DNA of 64,000 nucleotides, taken from Chiloscyllium plagiosum (taxonomy: Eukaryota). Location of the stretch: NCBI RefSeq assembly GCF_004010195.1, contig NC_057759.1, positions 510,264-574,263 on the forward strand, read 5' to 3'. Both the position numbers and the translations under genes were made by a program. Within the stretch, counting starts at the first letter, position 1. Each line of letters begins with the position of its first letter. This document shows positions 5,395 through 42,415 of the stretch, piece by piece. Under the pieces are notes generated by a model. It saw only the letters and a program-made list of their open reading frames with translations, was not told the DNA's origin and searched no databases.

Positions 5395-5915
5395 GCTCGG
5401 GACGCTGGAGATCTGAACCAAGAACAGAAAGTGCTGGGGAAATTCAGCAGATCTGGCAGTGTTTGTGGAGAGAGAAAGCAACGGTTATGTTTCGAGTCAC
5501 AGTAACCCTTTTTCAGAAACAAAGAGAAGGAGATTAAAAACAAGGGGAAAACAAACGCAATGTTGATAGTCGTTGACAGGGAATGTTAACATCACACACC
5601 CCCAACACCTATATTGGTTACATTCAGCACTGCCAAACGTATTGTCAATTCCTCACTATCTCTATTATATAGCTTTTCTTCTTTCCTGGCTTCCAATTAA
5701 CCATCTCTTTGTCTGCCTAAGCTCTCTTTCTGGATTCTGTCTCCAACTACCTTTTACAGATCCTGCCGACCCCCAAACCCGACCCCCTGACTACTTTCTT
5801 CTAAAGGCTTGTGGTTCTAAGGAAAGGTCACTGGACTTGAAATGTTAACTTGCTTTTTCACTCTCCCAGATGCTGGCAGACCTGTTGAGTTTGCCTGGCA
5901 CTTCTTACTTAAAAC
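5395..5915. mobile_element. Penelope-like element remnant with inverted terminal (pLTR) halves
   Basis: 5395-5520 (minus) and 5815-5915 (plus) are reverse-complement related: ggtcactggacttgaaatgttaac...cagatgctggcagacctgttgag. They flank a pyrimidine-rich interior. Confidence 0.6.
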
Positions 5916-6560: not shown

Positions 6561-6839
6561 CGAAAATATACATCAGATTAAGTGTGGGAGAGGTATACAA
6601 CTGCTTTCCTCAAACCACATTGGATGCTGGATAAATTATTTGATTTCGATCTGAGGAAAATGTATTTCTAGTAAGCAGAGTTATCAAGCAGTTGGAGACA
6701 AAGAACTGTTTATGGCGTTATGCGACAGATTAGCTTCAATGTCAATAATTGGCAGAACTGGTTCAAGAGAATGAATTGCCTACTCCTGTTCCTCTGAAAT
6801 TCTAACTGCTGCTATTTGCTTTTTTTTTTAGCATACTTT

Positions 6840-7127
6840 GGGCGGCACAGTGGCACAGTGGTTAGCACTGCTGCCTCACAGCGTTAGAGACCTGGGTTCA
6901 ATTCTCCGCCTCAGGCAACTGTCTGTGCCGAGTTTACACATTCTCCCCGTGTCTGCGTGGGTTTCCTCCGGGTACTCCAATTTCCTCCGACAGTCCAAAA
7001 ATGTGCAGGCTAGGTAAACTGCCCGTAGAGTTAGGTGTAGGAAATTGGATATGGGTGCGTTGCTCTTCGGAGGTTCAGTGCGGATTTGTTGGGCGGAAGG
7101 GCCTATTTCCACGCTGTGAGTAATCTT
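6840..7127 (+). mobile_element. HE1-type V-SINE
   Basis: tRNA-derived head gggcggcacagtggcacagtggttagcactgctgcctcacag...gggttcaattc; V-domain ttctccccgtgtctgcgtgggtttcctccggg; CR1-like tail. Confidence 0.92.
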
Positions 7128-7904
7128 ATTTGTTTAGGATATTTTTAGTCCTTTTTTCTGTATATTTCTTGTGCTTCTGCATACTTCACTTTTTCTGTCC
7201 TTTTCTGGTATCTAATAGTTCCCCAATCCTCTGGTGCACATACATCTTCGCAGCATTGGACCCCTTTGGCATTGAAACCATCACAAACACCTATTTCAGC
7301 AGAAATGAAAATCATGGTGGCCTCTCTTTCTCGTATTCGAGCCGGGTTCATCCTCTGAGCGGAGGCTGAACACCTTGGGTGGGAAATGCTTGCTGCATTT
7401 CCAACCTTTTTAAAGTTACGAGGCGACTTTGCGGACTCAGGGAACCAGGAGCGGATTCCCGTTGCATTAGTTGATGGGGAGGGAGGTGGGGATTGAATTA
7501 GTTCACCGGTTGAGCTTTAGCAAGCAACATTACTGATATGGACTGCATAGGTGGAGTGGTGGTGGGGTGGTTGGCCCTCATTGTTATGTTTTCACGCCCA
7601 CATAAATGCACGACTCTTCCCTGACACAGCCGAGGCAGATTCACTTTGCTTCAAACCATCCATGTTCGACCCAGCATAAATTGTTACATTTGTTGTCGAG
7701 CACATCGGGATAGTCGCTTTGCATTGAGCAACATAGAAAGTGGTGCTTGTAAAGTATGCGCCGATATCTTGTACGTTTCCTTCTTTTAAAAGCTGTTATT
7801 TGTCTCTCTATCACAAACTCTTGATTCCTATCAATCCCTTTTTTTACCACCCATACACTTTGTACCGAAGGTATAGATAGTAAGATTTCAGATTACACGA
7901 GAAT

Positions 7905-10110: not shown

Positions 10111-11299
10111 GAATGATCCCAAGCCTGGGGTTCCATATAAAGTCCGAACATGTTCTGTAAGTTGCATCTTTATCCAGTCGGCGCAAACCAGTGTCCAGAT
10201 GGAGACTGAAAACAACCTAATTTGGAGAGATTTTCCTCCTCCTTCCCAAACGCTGTGGGTCTTTTCAATGATTTGGTTCCTTTATCCAATACTTGGACAC
10301 GGTACTGTTAACTCAGGCTGTAGGAATAGGTTATAGATTTATCACTGATATTTCTGTCTTATTTTGAGGACTGAACTGAACAAGAGTGCATGGAAAACAA
10401 TGAGATCACCTCAAATGCTTGTTTCATTGTGGTGTGTTTGACTCCAACTGAAGTGAGTCTCCAACATGATGTACAGTCCCTCAAATGACATGGCTTGTGT
10501 TTTGACTTCCATGCCTTTAGCTAGCCCTTCTGAAGAATGGTCACTAGACTAGGAATATGAATGCTGTCGCTGTCTCTCCACAGATGCTACCAGCCCTATT
10601 GAGTTTCTCCTGCACTTTCTGGTGTCGTTTTCTTTAGCTGTTTCACCTCAGTAGTATCCATTGCACCAGCATTCAAGTTATTTCAATATTTGTTTCTGAT
10701 GTTGTGGCTCTGTCTTAACAGAGAGTGAACAATAATAAAGTTAACAGGAACGGATTTTAGAATTCCTCCTGTAAAACCATTTACAAGGTTATACCTTAAT
10801 ATTTACGAAAAAAACATGTTACTTTTTTATAGCGGTTTTCACAACTAATCATTCGCATCAGTGATATACTTACAGATGCCATCATGTTTTTAATGTGTGT
10901 ATTTGGAACTGCTGAGAGTATAATCCAGAAAAATAAAGACATATATTGGCTCAAACGTGTTCCCTATAAAATGGGAATTGAAGGCACAATAATCAATAAG
11001 GAATAAATACTATATCTAAAGATGTATTAGTGCACATCTATATATGTTGCATAAAGTCAAGTTTCAGATTAACAAGAGTCATTTAACAATCTCACCTCTG
11101 AACATTTTGATGTTTATTTCGAGCTGAGGGGTATAAAATAATAATGCAAAGTTGAAATGCCACAAACATGATGGTCAACGTCAATAATATAACACAAATA
11201 CCTACAGGGCATAGGATATCAGTGTCAAAAATCAGAGAATGTTAAAGAAACACAGCAGGTATGACACTATCTATGTACACAGAACAAACAGAAACCTGA

Positions 11300-12365: not shown

Positions 12366-13769
12366 ACTTGAAATGTTAACTGTGTTTTCCACTTCACTCC
12401 ACAAATGCTGTCAGGCCTGCTGAGTTTCTCCAATGATTTCTATTTTACTTATTTTTCATCCAAATCCAGAATTGAATTGGGTAATTTGGAAATGTAAATG
12501 AAGCCTCCCTAAACGAAACATTAAATGAAGCTATGAACATGGCCACTTGAAACATACAAAGAACGGAATAAAAGCGATGCAATCACGTTTTTCCTGTTGC
12601 AACTTAGAATTCCCACAGTAGAGATAGACACCATTGTTCTTTGAGTCTACAATGACTTTTCAAAGTGCATCCAATCCAGGCCATATACCTGTAACCCCAC
12701 AATTCCCATGGCTAATCCATCTAGCACACACAACATCCCTGGACACTTTGGGCAATTTGGCATGGTCAACTCACCTAACCTACTCATCTGTGGATGGAAC
12801 CCCACACAGCCAATTAGGTGAGCAGTTGATAAACATAAATGTTTGCGTCTCTTTCTGCTCTGAGTACTTCTCCTTTAATTCAAGGTTAACTCTCTTTGAA
12901 TTCAGTTCGGTGAGATTGTTGTTTTGATCCAATAAATTGTATTGCAGCTGCCAAACATTATGCCACTTTATTCCATTCTTTTTGAAACTAGTTTTATAAG
13001 GCCATTCAGACCCTCAAGCTTGTTCCACCAGTCAATGAAATCACAGCTGATATGTGGTCGAAATCCATATACCTGCCTCTGGTCCACATTCCCTTTACAG
13101 TTTTACTTAACAAATACGTCTCTCGCACGTATTTGAAATTGGCAACTGATGCTGGGTATATGTGGAGGGAAAAGATAGTGACTGGGCACCTCCGGTGAAT
13201 ATATTAATGGCACAGACCGCTGGAAAAACGACATGGGCTATTTTTTGTCACACTTGATTTGTTTGTCTTTCTGCACACAGAATGGCTACTGTGAGACCAT
13301 CACTGAAACAAACGTTTGAGTGTGTATTAACAGTATTACTGGAGCACCACCTAGAATGGTTCCACGTTCAAGCTAGTGATGGAATTCTCCTCAGTTTTGC
13401 TAGAAAGCAGATTTCCCGTTTCTTTAAATTCATTCGTCGGATGTGGACATCACTATCCAGGCCAGCATTTTTTTTAACCTCTGCTCTTAGGGACGTCTTC
13501 TCTCAAAGTGAATTGACCTTTTCTGTGGTTTGAGAATGAGCGTTTTTTGGTCTGCACTTTGAACACCTCGCCAGCTTCTTTTCCTCAGTCCTGCCTTTGC
13601 CTTTGTAATGTAAGCAGTTTTAATTTCAGTGTTTTAAAGACCCTATTTCAATGAGTGTAAACAGAACAAATCTCCAAATATGCCTTTGTCAATTTGCATG
13701 AATAACATGAAATTAAAGTAAAATCAAATGTGTCTTGCTCCTCTGAACACAGCAAACTAAAAAAAGAAA

Positions 13770-14150
13770 AATCGGACCACAGAGGGATACAGCAGGGAAA
13801 CAGGCACTTCAGTCCAACTCGTCCATACCGACCAGATTTCCCTAACAAAACTAATCCTATTTACCTGCGTTTCCTGCATATCTCTCTATATATTTCTGAT
13901 CCATACATCTGTCCAAACGTCTTTTAAAAATGTAATTCCACTCGCCTCTACAACTTCTCCTGGCAGCTCGTTTTATATATACGTGTGAAAAAGTTGTTCC
14001 TCTGGACCGATGAAATCTTTCACCTCTCACCTTAAATTCATTTACCTCTACTTTTTCACTGCGCTACCCTGGGGAAAAGAACTTGGCTGTTCATCTTATC
14101 TATGCTTCTCACAATCTTGTAAACCTGTAAGAGATCACCCTTCAGCTGTC
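13770..14150 (-). mobile_element. CR1 3' end, minus strand
   Basis: aaacaggcacttcagtccaactcgtccatacc...ctcctggcagctcgtt...ctctcaccttaaa is the reverse complement of a CR1 tail. Confidence 0.75.
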
Positions 14151-14159
14151 TGCATCAAC

Positions 14160-14452
14160 AATGTGGAAATGAATGTGATTTGTATTCCCAGAGGCCTGGC
14201 ATTCCAACAAAATCCCATCAATAAACACATCGATTTGGAACCCATTTACCAACCTCTGAGAAATGATATTACACGCATTAAGAGACCATGCCACATCAAT
14301 AGAAAATGGGACAGAACACCAACACTACACCGGAGGCTCACTGATGATATTACCTAGCATGGTGATGTAAAGTGTGAAAATAAACCTGCCAGCTCAGCAA
14401 GCAAACTTACAATCTGAACACCAACCTGAGCTACAAGTCTTTCAAAAATCGC
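14160..14452 (+). mobile_element. Penelope/Poseidon-type PLE 3' end (family B) with a degenerate hammerhead-like motif
   Basis: Reads NPINKHIDLEPIYQPL (end of the GIY-YIG ORF), then ggaggctcaCTGATGAtattacctagcatggtgatg. Homologous to 39322-39620 and 61905-62140. Confidence 0.75.
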
Positions 14453-14468
14453 AAACACACGTCATTAC

Positions 14469-14798
14469 CTAATGATGAGTGATCCACGTTTCTTTTCTGT
14501 GTGTCTGGAACAGATTGGCTGGACGGGGAAAGCATGGCACGCCCATTAACCTCTGCTTGATATCGACAACTATAGTTTCCTGCAGAAGAATGTTCATGTA
14601 CATTGATGGTGAAGACTGCCGTATCTTCAAGATCAGTCACACGACGATCCGTTGTAGAATCTTCCCTCCGACTGTTGTACAAGTTGAATATTCCACCTCT
14701 GGGCCGAATCTCACCTTTGCAGGAAATCACGACATTGTCCCTGTATCAATTAGCACCGTAATCTGACAGGACTTTGATAATCGGTTTGGAGAGTTGAT
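14469..14798 (-). pseudogene. Ig-like domain exon 2 (C2/LILR-FcR-like) of an Ig-superfamily receptor pseudogene
   Basis: acag|AT acceptor and G|gtaatg donor give a phase 1-1, 330-nt exon. It translates DQLSKPIIKVLSDYGAN*YRDNVVISCKGEIRPRGGIFNLY...AVFTINVHEHSSAGNYSCRYQ...LSPSSQSV, with both Ig cysteines and GNYSC. In-frame TGA at 14746-14748. Confidence 0.85.
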
Positions 14799-15169: not shown

Positions 15170-17222
15170 GGCCAACCTAAACAAGTATGTCACTACTGTT
15201 GTAGACTTCACTAGTACGCATGTAGAAACTGTGTGTTGCAGATGTTAATCCGAGTGTTCCCCAACTGGAAACCATGGATGAAGTGGGAAGTCCACTCCCT
15301 ACTGCAGGTCTGAGGCTTTCAACTCAGGTAAACCTGAACTATACAGGAAATTCAAGTACAAACTCTGTAGGACCGACAGGGATGCTAAGAGGCAACACTA
15401 AGCTAAACATGAGACGAAGATCAACCACACACATACCTCTCCTCCCTCACCTATCGCCTTCATCTCCTCCCCCACTGGCCTGTTGTGCTCTGTGCTGCTC
15501 TCTCCCCACCCCCACCCTCCTCTAGCTTATCTCTCCACGCTTCAGGCTTGCTGCCTTTATTCCTGATGAAGGGATTTTGCCCGAAACGTCGATTTTGAAG
15601 CTCCTCGGATGCTGCCTGAACTGCTGTGCTCTTCCAGCACCACTGATCCACACAGATACCTGTCCTTGTGGCAAGGCTTACACAACATGAAGCAAAATTG
15701 AACAGAATCATGGGCAACTGTACATATCTATGCGATGACCTCAATGCATTCTGTGCTTGCTTTGAGCAGAAGGTCAGTGAATCAATGTCATCTATGCCAA
15801 TAGCCTCGGATGAACCTGTACCCACCGTCACTGCCACAGAAGTTAGAAACTGTCTACTTTAGATTGAACCCACGGAAAGCAACTGGCCGTGTTGGAGTCC
15901 CCAGCTTTGCACTCTAATCTGTACGGATCAGCTAGAGGGAGTATTCATAGACGGCTTTAACTTCTCCTTACTATGATGTGATATTCCCAGCTGCTTCAAG
16001 CAGAACACAACCATCGCAGCGTGAATGGAAAATCATGCAGTGTGCCTCAATGACTAATGCCTGTTGGCTGTGACCTACATAATTATCCATTATCTTCAAG
16101 AGGGTTTAATGACTCACAGCCACTCCAGGTACCGATTACCTCGATCCTTTACCTACCGGCAAAACAGGCCCACTGCAGACATCACTTCCCTGGCCCTACA
16201 CTCATCCATGGAACATCTAGATAATAAGGATACCTACGCCAGGCTTCTACTTACTGACTACAACTCTGCATTAAACACCATAATTGTAAACAAACTGATC
16301 TGGATGCACAATCAGGAAGAATAGGCAATAACATCTCCTCACCATAATCCTCAGCACCAGGGCCCCACAAGTTGTGTACTCAGCACCTACTATGCTTCCC
16401 TACACAATCATGACTGTGTGGACACATTCCAGCCCAAATCCATTTACAGGTGCGCTAACAACACCATTGTATGCTTAGTGGCATGGTGCAACGATTATAA
16501 TCTTTCCTTCAATATCAGCAAAACTAAGGAGCTGATCATTGACTTCTGGAAGCACAGTGGAGGACACGCAACTATGTGCTTCAATGATGCTGAGGTCGAG
16601 ATCGTCAACTGTGTTAAGTTGTTGGGAGTGATGGTCACCAGAAATCTGTTCTGATTGATGCCATGATCAAGAAAACGTAACAATACCTCAAATTCCTCAG
16701 GATGACAAAGAAATTCGGCATGTCCACAAGCACTCTTGCTAATTTTTATAGATGCACCACAGAAAGCATCCTATTTGGATGCATCACAACGCGGTATGAC
16801 ATCTGCTGAAGAAATTACAGAGAGTCTTGAACACAGCCCATCTCACAAATCTGTATTTCATCCATTAATACCATCTACACTTCCTGCTTCTTCCGTGAAA
16901 TGGCCAACATTAACATAGACCCCTCCCACGTCAGTAATACTATTTTCAATCGGGCAGAAGATAAGAAAGTTTGAATATATGTAGCATCATGTTAAAGAAC
17001 AACTTCTTATCTGCTGTTTAAAGACTTCTGAATAGACCTCTCAAATATTAATTCTGATCTCTCTTTCTTGGTATACACTTGCTCTACAGCTGTAATACTT
17101 TATTTTTCACTCTGTTCTGCTACCCTAATGCACATTGTATAAGATCTGCCTGTAGAGAATGGAAAACAACTTTTGTTGACTATATCTCGGTTCGTGACAA
17201 CAGTAAATCAAATCAAACAACA
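15170..17222 (+). mobile_element. Rex1/Babar-clade LINE, decayed; lies in the intron between the two Ig exons
   Basis: Reads YRQNRPTADITSLALHSSMEHLDNKDTYARLLLTDYNSALNTII and LSFNISKTKELIIDF; ends in aaatcaaatcaaa. Confidence 0.8.
15443..15647 (+). mobile_element. PLE family A terminal fragment with hammerhead core, nested in the Rex1/Babar LINE
   Basis: CTGATGA (15563-15569), stem ggg/ccc, GAAA (15583-15586), then CGTC. Flanked by an ~18-bp imperfect direct repeat at 15425-15442 and 15648-15665. Confidence 0.8.
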
Positions 17223-20339: not shown

Positions 20340-22470
20340 TTCGACAAAAGATGCATATTCCGTAAAAGTACAAAGATCCAAACGGAATGGTGCATCTAGC
20401 AAGACTCAGAAAAGATATCTAAATTTCATCTTTTCCAAGCAGGCAAATTGTAAGACTGCCAGAAACATTGGGAAGCCTGAAGATTGGGAGTATTTGAGGA
20501 CTAAAAATAAGAAGACCAAAACATTGTTGAGGAAAATAAATCAATACAAATTCAAGCAAGTGATGAATACAAAGATGGATGGTAAAGTCTTTTTAAAGAT
20601 ACAGTGAAAGAAAAATGAATTAGACAACATAAATGTGGTCCCATCACAGATGAAGGTAGCAAATTTACATTAGCAACAGGATAATGCAGCTCACAGACTT
20701 GCAGCAGGTCATTGGACCATACAAAACAGGCCTTTCGACCCTCCATACTGCTCAACCATTCAACAGGATCATGCCTGATCTGACATTCCTCACATTTATT
20801 TCCCACTCTTTCCCCAATGGCACTTGATTCCACTATGACGCAAAATTTTATACATCTCAGCTTTGAACATACAAAAGGATTTTACCCCCAACACAGCTCT
20901 TTACAGCCAGGAATCGTAAAGATTCAGGTTTCTCTGATAGAAGAAACTCCTCCGCATCTCAGTCTTCAATTAGTATTACTTTATTTTAACACTATGCCGT
21001 TTTGTCCTCTCAGCATTGGACCCCATCAAGCCCCTTTGGAATTCTACCTGTTTCAATGCGATCACCCCTCATTCTGCAAAACTCTAGCGGGTAGAGTGCC
21101 AAACGTTTTAACCAGCAAGGAAAATGATCCAGGAAATCATCCAGATTTAAGTGATGCAGAAAAAATGTACAAGGTGCCAAATAAATTTCAGAGAGGTTGC
21201 GACAAATAAAAAGTGGTAGTTGATATGAAATTATTGAGAGTGATGGTTGATAAATATCTTTAACTGATAAAAGTTAATGAAGAGGATGGTGAAGGAACGG
21301 CAAAAAAAAAAATTGCCACATTGTTGCCTACCTTTCTAAAATTTATTGTTTCTACAACTGGTCATGCTGATTCAAAGATATTTAACATTATTCCTTAAAT
21401 TCAAGGAAAAGGGGTCAATGGAGATCTTTGTTAATATCATGACTAGAGTAGACACCATGTGAGAATCTAGCAGGGATAATCTAGTAACAGAATGGAGCAA
21501 AAATGGTAAAATTGGATAGAGCCAACATTGTTGTGTTAATCGAACATAAATCATTACAGTACAGTACAAGCCCTTCAGTCCTTAATGTTGCTGTGACCTG
21601 TGGAAGTAATCTGAAGCCCTACAGTCGAACCAACAATATTCTATCCTCGCCAATATGCCGAGCCAATTACCAATTAAATGCCCTTAAATGGGAATCATGC
21701 TTGACAAAACTGATGGAGCATTTTGAGCATGTTAGTTGCAGCATCTGTAAATGAGAAACAGAGAAGAGAATAGGTTCTCAGAAGGCTTTTCATAAGATCC
21801 CACACAGGCTGTCAACAAAAAATAAGTATGGGCCATGGGACTGGGTGAACTGAACAGTATGGTTTGAAATTGCTGAGCATCGAGAAAGCAGAAAGTTTGA
21901 ATGAATGAATCAATCTCAGGAGGCAAGCGTTCCTCACAGGGAACCACAAACATGAGACATCATGAGTCTAGAGTTTCCTGAAGGTGTTAGCACAGTCAGC
22001 CAGGGTGGTGAATAAGGCATATGGACTTAGGCCTGGTTATAGAATACAGGAGCAGGAACATCTTGTTGTAAGGTTCACACCATGGGTTAGAACACAAATG
22101 GGATACTGTGCGTAGTTCTGTTGACCACACTATCATAAGCTGAAAATGTGTTGCTGGAAAAGCGCAGCAGGTCAGGCAGCATCCAGGGAACAGGAGAATC
22201 GACGTTTCGGGCATAAGCCCTTCTTCAGGAAACGTCGATTCTCCTGTTCCCTGGATGCTGCCTGACCTGCTGCGCTTTTCCAGCAACACATTTTCAGCTC
22301 TGATCTCCAGCATCTGCATACCTCACTTTCTCCACACTATCATAAGGACGTGATAGCACTGGAGAGGGTGCAGAGGAGACTCACGAGGTTGTTGTCAGGG
22401 TTGGAAAGTTTCAGTTTTTTGAGGAGAGATTGGATAGGCTGAATTTGTCTTTCCTGGAGTCGATCAACGG
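20340..22470. mobile_element. Mosaic of decayed CR1 fragments (plus ~20340-20690 and ~21680-22470; minus ~20700-21110)
   Basis: Reads ESCLTKLMEHFEHV, then tagcactggagagggtgcagaggagactcacgagg. The minus tail is caggcctttcgacccctccatactgctcaaccattcaacaggatcatg. Confidence 0.7.
22140..22333. mobile_element. Palindromic PLE-derived insertion (family A) with an intact hammerhead core on the minus strand
   Basis: The arm ctgaaaatgtgttgctggaaaagcgcagc...gaatcgacgtttc is followed by its reverse complement. The minus strand of 22201-22230 reads tcCTGAAGAagggcttatgcccGAAAcgTC. Direct repeat CCACACTATCATAAG at 22125-22139 and 22332-22346. Confidence 0.9.
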
Positions 22471-22653
22471 GATGAACACCATAATGATTCACTTAAAAAA
22501 TACTCGGCTGTAATAATCGAAGGTGCTTATTTAAAAAAATTACAGTGAGCTAACCTCTTTTGATGAACTTCCACAATTGACTGGTTCCTGATTTATGCAA
22601 AATATCTCATTATTTCGAGTCATCTTCGAGTGGTTAACGGACCTGATACTCAC

Positions 22654-22684
22654 CAATTGCCAGAAGGATTGAAAAAGCAGACAT
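22654..22684 (-). pseudogene. Putative first (leader) coding exon of the Ig receptor gene
   Basis: aaaATG TCT GCT TTT TCA ATC CTT CTG GCA ATT G|gtgagt encodes MSAFSILLAI(G/V). It has A at -3, a hydrophobic core and a consensus phase-1 donor. Confidence 0.6.
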
Positions 22685-22785
22685 TTTGTGATGAAATTCC
22701 ACCCAATATTTTGAATGCAGAGATTAGTGTGTTGGTGTCCTTACTTTCTTGACTTTTGAGAGGTCGGAAGATAACAGTCTGTCTT

Positions 22786-22896
22786 GAGGAAGTTCCCTCC
22801 CAAAGCTATTTCTATCACTCATGCTCGTGTGAGTCAAATTATTGCTACACGTCAAAAAATACAACATTGGTGATCACTGAAGCAGTGTGTGGAAGT
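22786..22896 (-). promoter_or_regulatory. Candidate immune-type promoter motifs upstream of the leader exon
   Basis: GAGGAAGT (ETS/PU.1) at 22786-22793 overlaps GGGAACTTCC (NF-kB-like, minus strand, 22788-22797). TGAGTCA (AP-1) at 22830-22836. GGAAGT at 22891-22896. Confidence 0.4.
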
Positions 22897-22994
22897 GAGA
22901 GAACCCTAAGGGCTCCCTGACCTAGATTACACACAGGGGCTAACAGTGCCTCATTGGTTGGACAACTGGCCTGTGATGCATATTCGGAAGAATA

Positions 22995-23745
22995 GAAGAA
23001 TGGAATATTTTCTAAATGGGAAGAAAATTCAGAAATTGGAAGTGCAAAGGAACTTGGGAGTCCTTGTCCAGATTTCTCTGAAGGTACACTTGTAGGTTGA
23101 GTTGCTAGTTAGGAAGGTAAATAAAATATAGTCATTCGCCTCAACAGCACAAAATAAAAAGCTGGAATGTACTTTGGAGGTTTTATAATATTCTGGTCAG
23201 AACATGTTTATACTATTGTGAGCAATTTGAGCCCTAAACCTCAGGAAGAATTTATTGGCCCTGAGTAGGCCCAGAGGATGTTGATGAGAATGGTCTCAGA
23301 AAAGAAATATTTAACATATTAGGAAGGTTCGAGGACTCTGGGACTATACTCGAGTTTAGAGGGATGGGGCGGATCTAATTGAAACTTCCAAAATATTGAA
23401 AAACCTGGAGAGAATGGACATTTGGAAGATGTTTCCAATGGCAGTGCCCGAGGGCACAGACTATCGATAAAGGGAAGGCCTATTATAACAGTGATAATGA
23501 GAAATTTCTTTAACCAGAAAATGGTGAACCAGTGAATTCATTGCCAAAGAAGGTTGTGGACGTCATTTCATTGAGTATATCCAAAATAGAGTTAGAAAAG
23601 TTCCTGATTAGGTGGAGATCAAAGGTTACTGGGAGAGCGCGGGAGAATGGGGTTGGAAAAACTAATCAGCCATGATTGAATGACAGAGCAAACTCGACGG
23701 TCCGAATGACCTAATTTCTGATGTTATGTTATATGGTCTAAGATC
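22995..23745 (+). mobile_element. Decayed CR1 3' portion
   Basis: aatattttctaaatggg...gcaaaggaacttgggagtccttgtcca...gagaaatttctttaaccaga; tail ttatgttatatggtc. Confidence 0.85.
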
Positions 23746-26450: not shown

Positions 26451-28737
26451 GATTTGGCTATACAGTTCTCTCTTGAAATGGATTTTACTGTGCAGTTAGC
26501 TCTTGAATCGGTTTCGCTCTTGAAATAAACAATCAATAAATTACCAGAGCACGCAAGTAACTATTAGTGACTGTAGTAAACAGCTGATTCATTTTCAGAT
26601 CAGTGAACACACCAGTATTGGTATCAGTAAAGCTGTTGAAAATGACTTTGCAAAAAAAAAAACCTGAATTAAGAAACAGTGCTACAGGGTCTCACAACTA
26701 CCTCGAAAACACTGCCCATCTCCAAAATATGCACAGAGAATTTCCAAACTGGAGCTGGACAGTTATTCACATAATCCATCACAACAGATCAGGTATATAT
26801 GTACAACAGAGAAATGCATAGCCAAAGGACTAGCATCGGGTTTGATGCTTGTCCAAACACTGTTCAACATTTGCAAAACTCAACTGACAACAAGCATGTC
26901 TTGCAAGTTTATCTCTTCTGCTGTGCGATCGAAATACAGTAATTCTGTACCTTGGACCCGATCCTGAATAAAGGTGTTATAAAAGTGATGGACTCCTGCA
27001 GCACATGGCGTCTTACATTGAATCCCCCATAAACCTTATCCAGTGCATGTCAGCTCCACAACGTCAGTATCCAAATAGAATTGTATAGCCAAATTGGTGG
27101 CCAACATGATCCCAGCCCAACATGCTTCTTTGTTACTTGTAAATGTTTGCAGCATTGGTCTAACAATTAACAGCAAAGCCTCTTTACTGAAGGCTCGACA
27201 TCATTTGAAAATACCCACTTTTCAGTTGTCCAATAAGCACAAAATCCACCCATTTGTTCAGTTCAGATTTATGACAACAATGTGATGAAAACAGTGAACA
27301 ACTCACAGTACGGGGCTTTGAACAGATGAATCTCGTTACCACACTTTGAAATTATCAGGGTTTTTTCCCTTGAAATAATGCGGTGTACTGATATTCACAC
27401 ACAATCATTTTCATGGCAACAATATTACAGCTTTCTAAACATTCTCCAGTCAGATACGAGTACATTTTCAATTGTTTCTGTCCATCACACAGGTCAGTAA
27501 TGTGCTATGTGAATGTTAGTGTCTGTGCGATGTTAGGTATGTAGGCCAGGTCTCAGAAATACATCTGTTCACAACAAACAAGGTACTGACTGAACCTAAC
27601 CAGCCTGCACTCACAAAAACGCAAAACTCAGTGTCCAGCATTGCTCACGTTTAGACAATACTTTGCATAGTAATTTTTTAAGGGAATGTTATTGATTCAT
27701 TATTTATTGCCCATCCCTTGTTGCCTTTAAGAAGGTGTTGCTGATCTGCCACATTGAAACACTTGAGCTCACGATTGAGCATATGCAGTAGGTAAAATTA
27801 CAATGCCATTGGCGAGGGAACTTCCAAAAGTGAAATTGAAAGAAACAGCAATACACTTCCAAATCAAGATGGTGGTTGGCTTGGAACGGAAATTGCGCAT
27901 GTCCTTCTTGATGGTGGTCATTTCAGAGGAGCATTGCAAGGAGTTTTGGCAAATTTCTGCATTGCACCGTGTAGATAGCAGTCATTGCTGCTACTACGTG
28001 TCAATGGATAAAGGGTGAAGCTGCACTCAACCAGGCAAATGTGGAGTATTTCATCGCACACACAATCAATGTGTATATTATAGGTGGTGGGCAGGCTTTC
28101 GGAAATCATGAGGTGAGCTATTGCTGCAGGGGATTCCTAGCCCCTGAAATATTCTTGTAGCTAATTCACTTTCTGCGTCGAAAGGTGTGGCGCTAGTATA
28201 GCACAACAAGTCAGGCAGCATGTGAGGCGCAGAAGAGTTGACATTTTTCCATGAGCCCTTCAGAGGAATAGGTAATAGATTTATGTGAATAGTTAGTTCT
28301 GGTATGTTGCTAGCTGGGAGTTCAGTGATGGTGATAGCATTGAATGTTAGAGATGTGGTTCAATTCTGATTGTTAAAGGTGATCGTTGTCTGGCACATGT
28401 GCAATGCAAATTTTACTTGTCGGTTAAGCACATGCCTGAATATTTTGCTTATCTGATTAATCATGAATGGTGTTGAACATTGTCCAATCATGACAAACAC
28501 CCCCACTTGTGATTTTACGGTGGAGGGATGGTAATTTGTGAAGCAGTTGAAGACTGTTGGGCCTAGGACACAGAACACTCTTATAATTTACTTTTAGTGT
28601 CTCTCCCTCTGAGCCTGAAAACTTACTTCATGTTCGATCTTCTCCATACTTGTGTAACAATATATCTGAACAGATTAATATTAAAAAAGTAACCTATGGA
28701 GCTGAGAGAGGACATGGTTAGCCTAATCAGTTGGACG

Positions 28738-28946
28738 AGAAAGTGAGGACTGCAGATGCTGGAGATCAGAGCTGAAAATGTGTTGCTGGAAAAGCTCAGC
28801 AGGTCAGGCAGCATCCAAGGAACAGGAGAATCGACGTTCCGGGCATTAGCCCTTCCTGAAGAAGGGCTTATGCCCGAAACGTCGATTCTCCTGTTCCTTG
28901 GATGCTGCCTGACCTGCTGCGCTTTTCCAGCAACACATTTTCAGCT
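28738..28946. mobile_element. Palindromic PLE-derived insertion (family A) with an intact hammerhead core on the plus strand
   Basis: Near-perfect inverted repeat centred at ~28857. CTGAAGA at 28856-28862, gggc-ttat-gccc, GAAA at 28876-28879, then CGTC. Direct repeat CTAA(T/G)CAGTTGGACG at 28723-28737 and 28947-28961. Confidence 0.9.
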
Positions 28947-28975
28947 CTAAGCAGTTGGACGGCTAGTTTTTAAAT

Positions 28976-29165
28976 GGAGAAAGTGAGGACTGCAGATGCT
29001 GGAGATCCGAGTCAAGGAGTGTGGTGCTGAAAAGCACCAGTTGTCAAGCAGCATCTGAGGAGCAGGAGAATTCTGATTACTGAAGAAGGGCTTATGCTCG
29101 ATAGATCGACTCTTCTGCTCCTCGGATGCCGCCTGACAGTCTTTGCTTTTCCAGCATCACACTCT
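28976..29165. mobile_element. Older palindromic PLE-derived element (family A)
   Basis: ggagaaagtgaggactgcagatgctggagatc...CTGAAGAagggcttatgctcgatagatcgactc...tttccagcatcacactc; degenerate arms. Confidence 0.75.
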
Positions 29166-29419
29166 TTGGCTACTTTGTAATGTAAATTAATGCCAGCAGT
29201 ATGGGCCAAATTCCTGCACTGACTGAGGGGAATGTAAAGGATGGTCTCCTCAACGTCCCCCTTACATGAGGCATGGTAACTGTCCAGTTAAACTGTTCTC
29301 CGTCTAACGAGAGAACAAGCCTATCATCCCGTCTGGTTATGGTTCCTTACCTTACCATTTCTGATCGAGAGGCTTATCCAGAAAAACCTCCCTCGGGAAC
29401 TGTTGTAGAACTACCGTGT

Positions 29420-29745
29420 GGGCGGCACGGTGGCAGTGGGCGGCATGGTGGCACAGTGGTTAGCACTGCTGCCTCACAGCGCCAGAGACCCGGGTTCAAT
29501 TCCCGCCTCAGGCGACTGACTGTGTGGAGTTTCCACGTTCTCCCCATGTCTGCGTGGGTTTCCTCCGGGTGCTCTGGTTTCCTCCCACAGTCCAAAGATG
29601 TGCAGGGTCAGGTGAATTGGCCATGCTAAATTGCCCATAGTGTTAGGTAAGTGGTAAATGTAGGGGTATGAGTGCACTTCGGCGGGTTGGTGTGGACTTG
29701 TTGGGCTGAAGGGCCTGTTTCCACACTGTAAGTAATCTAATCTAT
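29420..29745 (+). mobile_element. HE1-type V-SINE, young, with a duplicated 5' end
   Basis: Starts gggcggcacggtggcagt + gggcggcatggtggcacagtggttagc; intact V-domain; tail gtaagtaatctaatcta. Confidence 0.95.
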
Positions 29746-30224: not shown

Positions 30225-30396
30225 TTATGGGACACACCTGGATAGTTTCCCAAATTTTAAAGTAGGTGCCAGTGCTGTCGCGCAGCCAGAACAGCTTAAA
30301 TGAAATGTTATCAGGGCCCACAGCCTTTGCATTATCCAACCCCTCCAGCTGATTGTAGATACCACACACAACAAAATCGAATTAGACTAAAAATCA

Positions 30397-30862
30397 GATA
30401 ACACCAGGTCATAGTCCAACAGCTTATTTGGAGGCACTAACTTTCGAAGTACTGCTTCTTTATCAGGTTTAGATTAGATTAGATTAGATTAGATTAGATT
30501 ACAGTGTGGAAACAGGCCCTTCGGCCCAACAAGTTCACACCGACCCGCCGAAGCGCAACCCACCCATAGCCCGACATTTACCCCTTACCTAACACTCCGG
30601 GACAATTTAGCATGGCCAATTCACCTGACCCTGCACATCTTTGGACTGTGGGAGGAAACCGGAGCACCCGGAGGAAACCCACGCAGACACGGGGAGAATG
30701 TGCAAACTCCACACAGTCAGTCGTTCTTCTTCATCACCACCTGATGAAGGAATAGGTCTTCGAAAGCCAGTGCCTCCAAATAGACTTGTTGGACTATGAC
30801 CTGGTGTTGTGTGATTTGGAACTTTGTCCACTCCAGACCAATACTGTCTCCTTCAAATCATG
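30397..30862. mobile_element. Palindromic PLE-related element (family C) split by an HE1 SINE
   Basis: Left arm acaccaggtcatagtccaacagcttatttggaggcac; right arm gtgcctccaaatagacttgttggactatgacctggtgt. The core reads cacCTGATGAaggaataggtcttcGAAAgccagtg. Confidence 0.75.
30469..30722 (-). mobile_element. 5'-truncated HE1 V-SINE with (TAATC)n tail
   Basis: Reverse complement of the HE1 body (ggaggaaacccacgcagacacggggagaatgtgcaaactccacacagtcagtcg) with (TTAGA)n at 30469-30500. Confidence 0.93.
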
Positions 30863-34864: not shown

Positions 34865-37800
34865 AGCGTGATCCGGATGTAACCGGGACAGGAAATATGA
34901 AATATTTAATTCGTGAATCAGTTAAGCGAAGGCTGAACTGCAATGGAAGCCAACATTGTTGAGTAAGTGAAATAATATATTGTTTGCAGTGGCTAAACAC
35001 GAAACACTACACACGCACTTCGCCCACATGCCTTACTCATCTAACAAAAAAAAAGACTCTGCATGGAGGGTTGTTAAGGTAAGGATTTTTTTTAAAAAAT
35101 CTCTTTTGGCAATTTCGAGCCTAGCCGATGGAGGCTTGGAGAGTTGCAGGCTATGGGATACAAGGGTTACTACTGGTGTCACTGTTGATCTCGCCTGTGA
35201 GAAGTGCATCCAGCTCTAGATCTTCACAGACCACATTATTGATCTGGAGCTGCAGCTGAAGCTAGATGAACTTTGGATCATTCGGGAGGCTGAGGAGATG
35301 AGAGAGATGAGTTAGAAGGAGATGGTCATGCTTAAGTTACAGATTAAAGGTAACTGGGTGAACATCCGGAGTGGGAAAGGCAATAGGAAGACAGTGCAGA
35401 GACACCCTGTGGCTGTCCCCTCAATAATAAGCATATCTCATTGGATACTGCTGGGGGTTAAGTCTATCGGAGAAAGCCACAGCGGCCAGGTCTCTGGCAC
35501 TGAGCCTGGCTCTGTGCCTCAGAGGGGAAGGGTGGAGAATAGGAGAGTGATAGGAGATTCAATGGCGAAAGGAACAGAAATGAGTTTCTGAGGTCACAAG
35601 CGAGACTACCAAATAATATGTTGCTTCCCGAATGCCAGGGTCAAGGATGTCTCAGACTGAGTTGAAAGGGTCAGCAGCCAGAAGTCCTGGTAGATATCGG
35701 ACTGGTGACATAACTAGGAAATTGGATGAGGATCTGAAAGTTTAATATAGGGAGTTAGATTCGAAGCTAAAAGGCAGGTCGAGTGGCGAAATAACCTAAG
35801 AACTGCTACAGGTACCGGGGCTAGTGAGGCTAACAACGAATGTAGCTGAGCGCGTGGCTGGAAGGCTGGTGTTGAAGGGAGGGCTTCTGATTTGGAGATC
35901 ACTGGGATAACTTTCCGGAGAAGGTAGGACCTGTACAAGCAAGACGGGCTGCACCTGAACTTGAGGTTCCTGGTCGGAAGCTTTGCTTGAGCTTTTGTGG
36001 GACGTTTAAAGAAATTTGGCAGGGGGATGGGAACCAGAGCTGTGGATCAGAGTGTAGAGTACATTGTGAACAGGCATATACAGCGTGCAGAATATCTCTG
36101 AGGAAGGGTAGACAGTTGATAAGGCTACGGTGGAGTCAGTGTGATGGGTTGAAGCATGGCTATTTTAATGCAAGAGGTGTCAGGAGATAGGGCGGTGAAC
36201 TCAGAACATGAATCAATACTTGGAGATACAATGTTGTGGCTATTAAAGAGACTTGGATTTCATAGCGACAGGAATGGCTGTTGGATATTCCATGGTTTAG
36301 ATGTTTCAGAAGGAATTGAAAGGGAGAGAAAACTGGTAGGGGTGTGGCATTGATAATCAGTGATAGTATCATAGCTGCAAAAATGTAGGTCGATGAGCAG
36401 TGTTTATCTATAGAGTCAGTATGGGTGGGTGTCAGAAACAGACAAGGCGCAGTCACTTCATTGGGAGATTCTTACAGTCGCCCCAAGTGCAACAAAGACA
36501 CCAGGTAGGAAATTGGAGGGCAGAGTTTGGAAAGGTGCATAAAGAAGAGGGTTGTTTTCATGGATGATCTCAATTTCCCAAAAATTGATTGGAACCTCCT
36601 CAGTTCAAGTAGTTTGAATGGAGCAGATTTTATCAAGTGTGCCCAGGAAATATTCCAGACTCAATATTTAGATGTTCTGACTTAAGGTAGGCTACATTGG
36701 ATTCGTTGCTTGGTAGCAAACTAGGTCATGTGTCAGATCTCTCATTTCAGTGACAGTGATCACAGCTCTCTGAAATTTACTGCAGTCATGGAGAGGGATA
36801 GGTGCAGGCGGTTTGGGAAATTTATTTAATGGGGGAGGATCTATTAGGCAGGAACTGGAACGCTAGGAGAAAGTGAGGACTGCAGATGCTGGAGATCAGA
36901 GTTGAAAAATGTGGTGCTGGAAAAACACAGCAGGCCAGGCACCATCCGAGGAGCAGGACAATCGAAGTTTGGGGCATAAGCCCTTCTTCAGGAATGAGGC
37001 CGGTGTGCCAAGCAGGATTAGATAAAAGGTAGGGGGGAGGGAATTTAGGGGAGGGGCGCTGGGAATACGATAGGTGGACGTAGGTGAGGGGGAGGGTGAT
37101 AGGCCGTAAGGGGGTGGGGGCGGAGAGGTCGGGAAGAAGATTGCAGGTCAAGAGGGCAGTGCTGAATCCGGGGGTTGGGACTGAGATAAGGTGGGTGGAG
37201 GGGAAATGAGGAAGCTGGAGAAATGTACATTCATCCCTTGTGGTTGGAGGGTTCCTAGGCGGAAGATGAGGCGCTCTTCCTCCAGGTGTCGTGTGGCCAG
37301 GGTCTGGCGATGGACCTGCATGTCCTTGGCGGAGTGGGAGAGGGAGTTAAAGTGTGCAGGAATTGGAGCGCATCGATTTGGAACAGGTGTTCTCAGGATA
37401 TTGCAAGACAGAAATGCAAAGTTTGTTTTATTTTGGTGCGATTGCTGGATAGGTTTGATCCACTGAGGAAAGGAAGTGATGGTCGTGTGAAGAATCTTGG
37501 ATGATAACAGATGTGGAACATCTAGTCAAAAGGACGTAAGGAAGCTTATTTAAGTTTGAGGTAGCAATGATTGACAGGATTCTACATGGTTATAAGCTAG
37601 CCAGGCAGGAACTGAAGAATAGACTTAGGAGAGATATAAGGAGGCTTGAGAAAACCTTGGCGGTTAGGATCAAGGAAAACCCGAAGGCGTGAGGAACAAG
37701 AGGATGGCCAGAGTGAGGGTAGGACCGATTAAGGATGGTGAGGGCAACTTGTACCTGGAGTCAGAGGAGTAGGCGAGGTCCTTAATCAATGCTTTGCTTC

Positions 37801-38250: not shown

Positions 38251-39321
38251 TATATATAAATTTGTGGTCATTTTGAAAATTGGTCAGAGCAACTGCTACT
38301 GAACAGCAGAACAACTGCTGTATAGCCGGAGAGCTAACTGCCCATCAAAAGTTTTGCCCACAAAGAAATGAGAAGGTGCTCTATCAAAAAGGTCCCTTTT
38401 CCGGTAAAACATACTCACAGTAAAACGAAAGAATAAGACTCAGGGAGACCAGCAGACAGAATATTGAAGACAATGGAGAAGGCAGAGATGTGTGGATTTG
38501 AGATTAAGTTACTGTAATGTTTAACAAGTGTTTTATTGGAAAAGCATGTCAATAGAATTGTGTTCAGTTAAGGGAAGGAGTGTTCTGTTTATTAAGAGTT
38601 TTGTACAGTGTTCTGTTAGGAAACTAAATTGTTACTTTCCTTTATGCATGGCAAATTAGGAGTTCACTTTCCCTCCCTCATATTTCTAAGAGATTACAAG
38701 GCCAGGCTAGTTTATTTGGGTGTTTGGTTTCAATTCTCAGAGAAGTTCAACCTCCGCGTCATAACAGATTAAGACTAGCCCGAGATTTGGACAAGATTTG
38801 GCATACGAAATATCCCAGCAGTTTTAAACACTGAGCGTTTTTTATCCTAGCCCTTTAAGTAAAACATAGTTGAAAGAAGCTTAATCTCGGTTACTTGTGG
38901 TTGGTTAAATTAGAAGTGACAGAAATAGCTCTTTACAATGCTAAAGAGTTTTGGGGATTGAAGACGCTTCACAAGTTTGCAAAGGAAGTTTAGAAAGACA
39001 GCGGAAGGATATGCTTTTAAACTTAACATAGAGTTTAGGATTGGGTTTAAAATTGGATGAAAGGACAGTTAAAAATGTAATGGACTTGGTCAGGCACTTA
39101 GTTATGTGAAAGAAACAGAAAAGTGCAGTGGAGTTAGAAAAACTTAAATTCGAATGAGGAAACTGGACTTAGAGGAAAATGAAAGGAGGGAAGGTTCTTA
39201 GCTGAGCAAAAAGACAGAGCGAGAGAATTTGAAGTTCAGAATGAGCGAATTAGTCAGAGAAGTCAAGCTAACAGAATAGAGATGAAGGGAGAACGCTCAG
39301 TTTTATGCAATTTTGTTAAAA

Positions 39322-40616
39322 GTTCTGAGAAGACTTGTAGTTCAGGTTGAGGTTCTGGATGTAAGTTTGCTCGCTGAGCTGGAAGCTTTGATTTTCGGAC
39401 ATTACTTCATCATACTAGGTAACTGCGTAACTGAGCCTCCGGTGAAGTACTGGTGTTCTGTCCTGCATTCCATTTATGTGTTAGGTTTCCTTGGATTCGT
39501 GGTGTCATTTCCTATGTTGCTGATGTCATTTCCCGTTTTCTTTTCTCTGTTAGTGGTAGATGGGGTCCACATCGATGTGTTTATTTATGAAGTTCGAGTT
39601 AGGATGCCATGCTTCTAAGAAGTGTCCTGCATGACTCTGTTTGGCTTGTCCTATGATGGATGTGTTGTCCCATTCAAAGTGGTGTCGTTTTGTATGAAAG
39701 GATATTAGTGGTAGTGGCTCCTTTTGTGGCTAGTTGATGTTATGTGTCCTGGTGGCTAGTTTTCAGCCTGTGTGTTACAGTTGTTGCAAAATATTTAGTA
39801 AATTACGTTCATTTTACTTGTTGAACGTAAAGGGTATTTTAATTTAATTACCTACTGTCTTAGTGTGTTGGTGGGTTTGTGCACTACTATGAAGCCAAGA
39901 GGTCTGATTAGTCTAGCAGTCATTTCCGAGATTTTTCATGTAGTGTAGAGCGGCAAGGGTTTCTGGGTGCATTTTGTCAGTTTGTTTGAGTTTGTTGCTG
40001 AGAAATCGGCGGACTGTGTTCATTGGGTTACCATTCTTTTTGAATATGCTGTATTCATGATTTTCTTCTGCTCGTCATTTTTTCTCTGTGCTGCAGTGTG
40101 CGCTGGCTCGTTGAAATAACGTTCTAATGCAGCTCTTTTTGGGGTATTGAGATGATTGCTTCTGCAGTTCAGTGTTTGGTCCGAATGTGTTGTTTTCCTG
40201 TAGACGCTGGTTTGAAGTTCCCTGTTGAGTTTTCCCTCTATTGTGAGATCTTGGAATGATGGTTTGTTGTGATTTTCCTTCTCTTTTGTGAATTTTATGT
40301 CAGTAAGGAAATGATTGATGATCTTGAAGATTTTCGGTAATTTGTTTCATTTAATGATGACAAAGACATTATCCACATAGCAGACGCAAAGTTTGGGTTG
40401 GATGGTTGGCAGAGCTGTTTGTTCGAATCTGCATTACAGCTTCTGCTAAGAACCCTGATATCGGAGATCCCATGGGTGTGCCGTTGGTTTGTCTGCAGGT
40501 TTTGGTATTGAAGGTGAAGTGGCTGGCAAGGCATAGGTCCACTCCCTTGAAGATGTTGTCCTTGCTAATGAAGTTGGTGGTGTCCGGTGCATGCGCATTT
40601 GGTTTCTTGTTAGATA
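39322..40616 (-). mobile_element. Penelope/Poseidon-type PLE (RT + GIY-YIG remnants, family B) inserted in the Gypsy gag
   Basis: Minus strand reads QTNGTPMGSPISGFLAEAVM, IKFTKEKEN, VYRKTTHSDQTL and NVIY*IFCNNC. A possible tgttaaaa direct repeat lies at both ends. Confidence 0.85.
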
Positions 40617-42004
40617 TGTTAAAACATTGCCATGTATTGATGAGAAATAAGTCGAAGCTTTCTTTATTTCTTCTGAAAAATTGGCTCGGCAGATGGAGTG
40701 ACCAGAGAACTTGTGGATAATGCTAGCTTACACTAAGCTAGTAGCCAGAGCTAGTGAGGTATTTACAGTGCTCTCAGATAAGTGGTGAAGAGATTATGAA
40801 AAGATAAAAGTGACAATTTTGCGTGCTTATGAATTGCTACCAGAAGTGTATACGCAGCGTTTCAGAAAAGTAAAGAAAGCACCAGGTCAGACTTATGTTT
40901 AGTTTGAAAGAATACTTAAAAATAGATAAAATATATGAGGCTCTAGAAGAGAGCATCCTGCTGGAGGAGTTTAAGAAATCACTTCCAGAGTGGATGCTAA
41001 CTTATGTGGATGAACAGAACTTTTAAAAAGTGAGAAAGGCAGCAGAGATGGCAGACGAATGTGCTTTGGTGTGCAAGGTGACATTTAGCTTCCGACAGGA
41101 ATTTTGTCCAGTGAGGGATAGAAATTGGGAGAAGGGAATTGAGTACACTACAAAACAAAGAGTAGAGCATAATGAGGATAGTTTACCGCAAGTTAAGAAC
41201 GAAGGCCAAGGAACTGAAAGGCCTCAGGTGTTTCCAATGTGGTAAGATAGAACATACAAAGCCACAGTGCAGGTGGTTCAATAAAGGCGCTGTGGGAAAA
41301 GAGGCTAAAACTGTAGCATTAATGAAAGTAGTAAAGGAAACCCCAAGACGTCAAGGAACTGCAGAATATTGCACAGCCTTTGCAGGGGCTGGACATTGCA
41401 TTCGTACCCGATCTCTATAAAGACTTCATTTCATTTTCGTAAAGTTTACTCATGAATGAAAGGGGGAGAAGAGAAAGAAGCTACAGTTTTAAGAGATGCG
41501 GGATCTGATGGGTCTCTGATAGTAAGAGATGAAAGTATTTTAATTCTTTCTGACATATTAATCAACAGGGCAATAATTTATGGAATAGATAGGTAAGAAA
41601 TTTAGCCATCGCTGGGTAAGATATCCAAATCAAGGCGGAGGAAATAACAGTGGGAGTGATTAACAGAGTGTAATTTCCGGGAATACAGTTTATTCTTGGG
41701 AACGATTTTGCAGGATCCAATGTCCTACTGAAGCCACTTCTTATGGAGAGGCCATAGGCAAATCCAGGGAACTGAGGAGTTCAAACAAAACTACCTTAGA
41801 TTTTCTTCCAGAACGGTGTAAAATCAAGATCCCACTGTCAAATTACATGAAGATGTACATACTGAAAAGAATGATGATGGCATTGAGGTTCAGTTAGCGG
41901 ACACCCCATATGATTTACTGGTGCAGGAAAAGCCTGAATAGGCAATGGGTCAGTCTAAAACGTTTTGTCCTGAAAGGCTAATGGTCTTTCAACGGAATGA
42001 TGAG

Positions 42005-42415
42005 ACAATTATATATATGTGTGTGTGTGTGTGCGTGTGTGTGTGTGTATTTATATAAAAATATGTATATTATATAAATGTGTACACATATATGTGTGTG
42101 TGTGTATGCACACACGCGCACACACATACATTTGTTTGTGTGTATCTATGTAAAATATTATATTCGTTACAGCGTGGAAAAAGGCCATTCGACCAAGAAG
42201 GTACACACCAACCCTTTGAAGAGAAACCAAACCAGACCCATTTCCCTTTGAATAATGAGGAGAAAGTGAGGTCTGCAGATGCTGTTCCAGCAATAAAGTT
42301 TCACCTTTGAATAATGAACCTAACGCTATGGCCAAACCACCTGACATGCACATCTTTAGATTGCAAGAGGTAACCCACGCGGGGAGAATATGAATACTCC
42401 ACACAGACAAGGGCA
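42005..42415 (-). mobile_element. (AT)/(GT) microsatellites plus a degenerate HE1 SINE inside the Gypsy element
   Basis: tgtg/tata runs at 42005-42150; gtggaaaaaggccattcgacc...acccacgcggggagaatatgaatactccacacagaca. Confidence 0.7.

Follow-up and report, generated by a model that had tools for sequence, protein, structure and literature searches.

Introduction

Penelope-like elements (PLEs) are described as leaving insertions in which an inverted, 5'-truncated copy of the element is combined with a tail of 30-40 bp at one end (PMC8557442; PMC3846280; PMC2377424). Experiments with purified PLE protein showed nicking and extension of both strands of the target in vitro; reverse transcriptase (RT) started at two neighboring internal positions, one on either side of the tail, and ribozyme cleavage was not needed (PMC11167929). 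The minimal hammerhead ribozymes of PLEs are weak or protein-dependent (PMC11167929; PMC4209133; review PMC6765202), and the mechanism that gives rise to inverted and tailed PLE insertions is called still undefined in PMC8557442. PLEs are reported to have expanded in the introns of the whale shark (bioRxiv 10.1101/443036). In this study, we analyzed a 64,000-nucleotide stretch of the Chiloscyllium plagiosum genome (contig NC_057759.1, positions 510,264 to 574,263 of the forward strand; hereafter the window, with coordinates counted from its first letter), which contains a 192-bp hairpin-forming insert at 22140-22331. The locus is a real, young, and ordinary PLE end stub, i.e., a transposon relic inside another relic, and its palindrome was probably built during insertion by the joining of two cDNAs. 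The inverted copy, the tail at one end, and the hammerhead in the pseudo-long terminal repeat (pLTR) have each already been described for PLEs.

Structure of the insert

The insert is bounded by an exact 15-bp direct repeat, 22125-22139 and 22332-22346, which is a target site duplication (TSD). The features of the locus are listed below.

21937-22468, plus strand: decayed C-terminal relic of open reading frame (ORF) 2 of a long interspersed nuclear element (LINE), hosting the insert; limits approximate
22125-22139, plus strand: left TSD, 15 bp; the arm A cDNA begins within it and shares its last 2 nt (microhomology)
22140-22231, minus strand: arm A, a tail-less PLE 3' end that begins 3 nt before the hammerhead core and stops at the upstream end site
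22201-22228, minus strand: minimal type I hammerhead core, with C3 at 22228 and C17 at 22201
22229-22231, strand unassigned: head-to-head junction with TTC/GAA microhomology, three bases common to both arms
22229-22299, plus strand: paired part of arm B, a second copy of the PLE end from core residue G12, complementary to arm A at 71/71 positions
22300-22331, plus strand: PLE tail of 32-34 nt, in arm B only, ending at the downstream end site
22332-22346, plus strand: right TSD, 15 bp

Within the insert, an inverted repeat (22138-22217 and 22220-22299) contains a perfect stem of 71 bp, formed by 22138-22208 with 22229-22299, which is topped in the fold of the minus strand by an 8-nt bulge and a 4-bp stem II. 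The tail (22300-22331/33) lies unpaired outside the palindrome. The predicted energy of the minus-strand fold is -161.5 kcal/mol (z = -21.8), a value that none of 200 shuffled sequences equalled. By chance, an exact 15-mer present in both end zones was found in 21 of 20,000 random 192-nt intervals of the same window. The two arms share 3 nt at the head-to-head junction, and each arm end shares 1-2 nt with its TSD side in two young copies, i.e., the insert itself and a sister copy that begins at 28737.

A 185-nt contig assembled from short reads of run X1 covers the left flank, the TSD, and 22 nt of the insert with zero differences; the left junction is thus not specific to the assembly. Runs X5 and X8 contain no contig over 22024-22113, and the lower share of matching words there is not evidence on an empty site. 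When the insert and one copy of the TSD are deleted in silico, a continuous LINE-ORF2-like frame is restored across the site. This frame matches a LINE relic at window positions 64-330 with 34.7% amino acid identity (E 6.5e-9), and the relic is in turn 70% identical to 63485-63990, which itself lies downstream of an RT-like stretch. We take the host LINE to be CR1-like from its motif; no tool returned that name. The first-pass annotation of this DNA had described a young retro-insertion into a CR1, with a long inverted repeat and a 15-bp direct repeat. Both repeats were recovered, although the palindrome is not a clean one, since the unpaired tail lies beyond its stem. Retro-insertion with a TSD agrees with the exact duplication and the restored frame, and youth agrees with the identity of the arms (71/71) and of the TSD copies (15/15); the insertion is likewise borne out by the interrupted LINE frame, and the assignment of the host to CR1 is tentative.

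Source element of the insert

Judged from its sequence, the insert is the severely 5'-truncated end of a PLE that encodes an RT and a GIY-YIG endonuclease. Two longer copies of the same unit, 36866-37357 and 58921-60241, extend upstream into coding sequence, and because they reach the GIY-YIG C-terminus, the repeated unit is the 3' end (pLTR) of an endonuclease-bearing PLE, in keeping with the PLE origin that had been proposed. The copy at 36866-37357 enters a 68-residue frame for which HMMER returned 21 relatives at E <= 0.001; P0006 (6056 aa, unrelated, with a match of 31 residues) was dropped from these. The relatives include the 416-aa protein P0017, for which 52 long homologues, only 29-49% identical to this query, carry the RVT_1, HTH_animal, and, in part, GIY-YIG domains. 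The peptide encoded at 37151-37354 matches 37 of the 52 long proteins at E <= 1e-3, and among the matches listed it lies at their C-termini. In the copy at 58921-60241, the GIY-YIG motif region is found in both arms.

The window peptides alone gave no match in Pfam, a word-index protein search with the 68-aa peptide gave none, and pattern scans of metagenome, viral, and genome contig sets were equally without a match. The 64-kb window contains no RT part of this PLE family. One frame is open through the tail; in a comparison aimed at an ORF start within the pLTR, it gave no match to the N-termini of the 52 long relatives. The upstream ORF, the hammerhead in the pLTR, the inverted truncated copy with a tail, and the TSD are all features of endonuclease-positive PLEs. 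The source PLE may be Neptune-like.

Hammerhead ribozyme core

The motif CUGAAGA-A-GGGC(UUAU)GCCC-GAAA-CG-UC is located at 22228-22201 on the minus strand, as had been noticed previously. Stem II is formed by 22220-22217 and 22212-22209, and the predicted cut lies between 22201 and 22200. The conserved core, stem II, the palindromic 15.2/16.2 pair with the ACGU remnant of helix III, and the NUH triplet identify it as the minimal type I core that had been claimed. Helix I, expected to be about 4-5 bp long, has only 2 bp in the 22140 copy; 3 of 4 pairs are formed in the AUUC-type source and 4 in the AGUC-type copies. A hammerhead search, which had been suggested as a check, was positive by degenerate pattern (6 matches in the window, none in any of 100 shuffles) and negative in Rfam, where no hammerhead match was found at E <= 1 and only sub-threshold look-alikes of microRNA hairpins were returned.

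In the fold predicted for the 22140 hairpin, the unpaired probability of G12-C17 is 0.00, and the ACGU, which would pair two ribozymes, is buried. A hammerhead-compatible fold would cost 19.9 kcal/mol in this copy, 33.5 kcal/mol in the sister, and 3.2 kcal/mol in a solo arm. Because helix I is limited to 2 bp and G12-C17 is locked in the predicted hairpin, the hammerhead of the 22140 copy is very probably inactive and no cleavage is expected. The description of the element as ribozyme-bearing consequently stands for the core, whereas a working ribozyme is doubtful, with the 3' half of the core predicted to be fully paired.

A comparison of 13 arms gave no excess of covariation over shuffles; pairing amounted to 74.7%, compared with 16-46% in slid controls. 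Among the contig variants listed with a frequency above 1% in 22228-22201, only N7, loop II, and CpG sites are represented. This pattern fits a conserved source, within the limit that the variant set had passed a 90% identity filter.

Copies of the family in the window

The PLE-end unit is present in at least 10 copies in the 64 kb and accounts for 2,897 bp, or 4.5% of the window. Ten copies were analyzed in full, and these counts exclude weak profile hits at 5431-5519, 5815-5902, 10526-10615, and 12369-12432; the four hits are probably older subfamilies, and the first two are oppositely oriented. Six of the ten copies are inverted (22140, 28737, 28977, 42260, 56712, and 58921), and the other four consist of a single arm (15560, 28186, 36866, and 44822). 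A TSD of 10-16 bp flanks eight of them, four exactly and four with 1-2 mismatches, and the copies stop at either of two end sites located approximately 33 nt apart. The copies other than the insert are as follows.

28737-28948, plus strand: sister inverted copy, subfamily as in the insert; 93/94 identity in arm A, other centre junction, 15-bp TSD with 1 mismatch
28977-29171, plus strand: older inverted copy with a third junction; weak 13-bp TSD with 2 mismatches
42260-42303: 44-bp mini inverted copy, consisting of part of the tail and approximately 23 nt of the end that precedes it; the 14-bp TSD is exact
56712-56847: inverted copy in which the second arm comprises nothing but the tail; exact 10-bp TSD
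58921-60241: old 1.3-kb inverted copy, both arms running into GIY-YIG coding sequence, one tail; 14-bp TSD with 1 mismatch
36866-37357, minus strand: single-arm tailed copy, running upstream into the C-terminus of the RT and GIY-YIG ORF; 16-bp TSD with 2 mismatches
44822-44912, minus strand: single-arm tail-less copy from the subfamily of the insert (87/90), beginning approximately 5 nt in front of C3; exact 14-bp TSD
15525-15650, plus strand: single-arm tail-less copy of another subfamily; TSD not found, limits approximate
28183-28270, minus strand: decayed single-arm tail-less copy; TSD not found

The region 28723-29180 holds two inverted copies of unlike age in the same orientation, 28 bp apart.

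Every inverted copy (6/6) has exactly one tailed and one tail-less arm, and in every one of them (6/6) the tail-less arm extends further 5'; each of these patterns has a chance of 1/64 if the ends are random. The centre junction is distinct in all six, including the sisters at 22140 and 28737 with their nearly identical tail-less arms. The tailed arms of the sisters stop at about +21 and about +6 from C3, respectively, and TTC is shared at each joint. The tail of arm B recurs in the copies at 28737, 28977, 36866, and 42260. The PLE end is also found as single arms and in long copies with ORF sequence. The first-pass annotation had proposed a separate, non-autonomous palindromic family resembling miniature inverted-repeat transposable elements (MITEs); the junctions that differ in 6/6 inverted copies and the existence of single-arm and ORF-bearing copies do not support it.

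Ten arms retain C3-A9, and none of them starts at the predicted cut site: six start 2-8 nt before C3, three extend well past it, and the start at 15560 is unclear. At 22243-22333, the arm sequence GAUGCUG can pair with the tail sequence CAGCAUC in each of the 5 tailed arms aligned, and the upstream end site would lie inside the stem; this arm-tail stem has no covariation term and z = 0.22, and we make no claim for it.

Junctions in genome-wide contigs and RNA reads

One arm with its flank was compared with three DNA runs (57,995, 31,628, and 32,191 contigs) and one RNA run (1,497 reads). Contig depth summed to about 1e7 over the arm and to about 10 over the flank, which shows only that the unit is "very abundant" and gives no copy number. 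Joints at which the strand switches were found at at least five distinct position pairs in the contigs and RNA reads, and 10 of 12 joints with intervening letters, among those listed, have 22231 or 22232 as their point of departure from the arm. Another set, made up of many contigs and 326 RNA reads, passes beyond 22231, and its consensus begins like the upstream sequence of the PLE.

Two further signals were observed in these data. Joined forms in run X5, from 22231 to 22138/22144, connect the hammerhead front with the beginning of the tail and can be read as head-to-tail tandems; such a reading would mean partial-tandem pLTR formation or retrozyme-like units. At 22141, next to the tail-less end site, 61 reads of RNA run X21 have a T-rich loose end (agreement 0.46), which may reflect poly(A) addition near this site or genomic runs of A.

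Proposed origin of the palindrome

The palindrome was probably built during insertion, when both target nicks primed cDNAs from two PLE start sites and the ends of the cDNAs were joined by microhomology. The PLE endonuclease would nick both target strands 15 nt apart. The end of the top strand would then prime a cDNA at the upstream start site and run to the 5' limit of the template before the hammerhead, while the end of the bottom strand would prime a cDNA at the downstream (tail) start site and halt at G12. The 3' ends of the two cDNAs could anneal via GAA/TTC, followed by fill-in, and the hammerhead would be a passenger carried from the source pLTR. It may be that this 5' limit marks where the template RNA starts, and the initiator-like sequence YCA(G/T)TCC is located there. 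If this limit is the first base of the RNA, then the stubs are run-off copies of the leading pLTR of the mRNA. A palindrome made at insertion would also make the stub a truncated insertion rather than a self-propagating MITE-like palindrome.

Several results weigh against this origin. The chief one is that two joints each recur in 8 contigs of run X1, with summed depths of 268 and 335 compared with about 10 in the flanks; such recurrence fits hot spots of microhomology, but it fits a replicating palindromic source too. The sisters at 22140 and 28737 begin arm A at the same point. In each young palindrome both arms carry the same variant at 22186, which is expected from one template but equally from snap-back copying, and the arms of the 1.3-kb copy (58921) are only 69% identical. 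No pile of read ends was found at the predicted cut site or at the inferred RNA start, in a library whose type is uninformative on this point. Only ten copies were readable in full, and arm A of 42260 and the junction of 28977 were read by eye in decayed or very short sequence.

The published proposal for head-to-head PLE junctions is self-priming (PMC3846280), and this snap-back route is the strongest of the alternatives, although it appears unlikely here. A single cDNA, or else the copy made from an antisense template, would fold at GAA/TTC or at the stem II palindrome and copy itself, and resolution by the endonuclease, to which PMC8557442 ascribes the tail, would leave one tail. Snap-back would also yield a new junction with each insertion, and it accounts for the likeness of the arms (71/71 and 85/88), including the shared variant at 22186. 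However, if the arm extending furthest 5' were copied by snap-back, the product could not acquire a tail absent from that arm, and the tail stands on the other arm in 6/6 copies. In addition, the arms barely overlap at 56712 and 42260, unlike those of a self-copying product, and in the two young copies each arm overlaps its own TSD side by 1-2 nt, which is a further point against it.

Next in order, and likewise improbable, is a palindromic, non-autonomous mini-element that is retrotransposed as a unit by a PLE, its junctions being altered later by deletion at the unstable centre of the hairpin. Non-autonomous PLE derivatives exist (bioRxiv 10.64898/2026.07.22.740005), and such a master is favored by the sisters, with their identical outer ends and arm A start, and by the two joints recurrent in several contigs. 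It is opposed by the one-tail layout, which is constant across several subfamilies and over sizes of 44 bp to 1.3 kb, and by single-arm copies that bear TSDs of their own. The many contigs and 326 RNA reads that run past 22231 into a consensus like the PLE upstream sequence also count against it, and a 71-bp perfect hairpin would bury both inferred RT start sites.

It is very improbable that the insert is a non-LTR retrozyme, in which an active hammerhead would free and circularize a unit RNA before its insertion. The type I core is present, and in two joined forms of run X5 the hammerhead front is connected with the tail region in a manner readable as head-to-tail tandems. At the locus, however, the arms are inverted and there is no tandem array, the only direct repeat in 21500-23000 being the TSD; the predicted cut site is the start of 0/10 arms, and position 3 of helix I is unpaired in 7/10 cells. 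Cleavage was reported in just 1/9 Xenopus dimers (bioRxiv 10.64898/2026.07.22.740005). Finally, a MITE moved by a DNA transposase, suggested by a long inverted repeat of about 200 bp, and an assembly artifact are both essentially excluded, since the inverted repeat is not terminal (the tail lies beyond it), the TSD varies from 10 to 16 bp among the window copies, and the sequence runs on into a GIY-YIG ORF, with no DNA-transposon signature (as the first pass had held), while the left junction is present in short-read contigs and removal of the insert restores the host frame.

RNA read signal

Between 22149 and 22221, T>C changes on the plus strand were found at 11 places in RNA run X21, compared with 1, 2, and 2 places in the DNA runs; they correspond to A>G on the hammerhead-sense RNA only if the first mate reads the opposite strand. 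At A15.1, the change is present in 62/550 reads of one direction and 10/373 of the other, against 0.1-0.4% in DNA, and A14 is also among the sites. A direction bias was found in 5/6 of the T>C rows among those listed (p <= 3.2e-4). Changes at 22176, 22177, and 22181, which are impossible as editing on that strand, are equally direction-biased, and transversions at 22146 and 22148 are raised in RNA without such a bias; much of the signal may therefore come from divergent copies, one or a few in number, that are expressed. The RNA and DNA reads come from different samples, and the RNA reads are polyA single-cell reads. None of them lies on the flanks of the locus, which says nothing on the expression of the 22140 copy. 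The T>C excess is of the kind expected from A-to-I editing of the hairpins, but given these confounders it is a weak lead only. Heavy editing has been reported for a palindromic repeat of Xenopus and for a lizard Penelope element (PMC5625713).

A wider reading is offered tentatively, as one that we consider possible but doubtful: the genome would hold, at very high copy number, a record of complete PLE insertion by two nicks and two start sites, with an initiator overlapping helix I, run-off pLTR stubs and hairpins, and an Alu-like reservoir of double-stranded RNA subject to ADAR editing at A14 and A15.1.

Other repeats and frames in the window

RT-motif fragments at 39286-40722 and 13989-14441, with a related stretch at 61910-62074, belong to a different family (weak RVT_1 match, E 0.046), which is presumably Penelope/Poseidon-like. 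An open frame at 14431-14745 on the minus strand has a weak match to an immunoglobulin domain (Ig_3, E 0.0054) and is possibly a host exon of the immunoglobulin superfamily, which would put some copies in introns. A repeat family of about 300 bp, with copies 76-91% identical at 29437-29744, 30485-30723, 56400-56685, and 6836-7129, is presumably SINE-like (resembling short interspersed nuclear elements), and its copy at 30391-30817 includes a 79-bp inverted match.

Implications

The insertion mechanism of PLEs could be read from compact records such as the 22140 stub, which is one among very many. Since all three junctions are kept within 222 bp, a census of young stubs can, with no bench work, distinguish the joining of two cDNAs from snap-back and from a palindromic master. 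The stubs resemble MITEs or microRNA hairpins, which is relevant to annotation, and they are a possible source of double-stranded RNA.

Comparison with known systems

In twin priming of L1, two target ends prime on one RNA, which yields a 5' inversion joined by microhomology. The arms of such L1 insertions have no sequence overlap, whereas those of the present insert overlap by 71 nt. The palindromic Harbinger repeat of Xenopus is similar in being a self-folding repeat of about 200 bp and a target of ADAR, but it is a DNA transposon (PMC5625713). Non-LTR retrozymes are also short, non-coding, and hammerhead-bearing relatives of PLE terminal repeats; they form head-to-tail tandems in which two or more hammerheads face the same way, in contrast to the one core in an inverted unit found here (PMC7229834; bioRxiv 10.64898/2026.07.22.740005).

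The minimal hammerheads of metazoan pLTRs have the same CUGANGA-N-stem II-GAAA-NN-UH core with an extra base between positions 9 and 10.1, the same G10.1-C11.1 pair and palindromic 15.2/16.2, and occur mostly as solo truncated copies (PMC4209133). The available text of that paper does not name cartilaginous fish, including Callorhinchus. Helix I is 4-5 bp in the hammerhead families of Schistosoma, compared with 2 bp in the insert, where the core is moreover sequestered by the second arm (PMC4209133). As in the proposed origin of the insert, both strands are nicked and extended in vitro by Anolis Poseidon, and two RT starts, approximately 110 nt downstream of a hammerhead whose cleavage is dispensable, bracket the tail (PMC11167929). 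The joining of cDNAs into a palindrome is not described in the available text of that study, and an ORF start inside the pLTR, as Poseidon has, was not found here in the comparison with the N-termini of the 52 relatives.

The closest systems are the insertions of endonuclease-positive PLEs (PMC8557442; PMC3846280; PMC2377424). A literature search that did not extend to repeat databases or to most subscription journals found no account of this element or of two-cDNA joining or twin priming in PLEs. The TSDs of the Adineta examples measure 8-10 bp, compared with 15 bp here. The insert shares with these insertions the head-to-head copy of variable length, the single tail, the TSD, and the upstream GIY-YIG ORF; it differs from them in that both arms are shorter than 110 nt, so that the whole insert is a hairpin.

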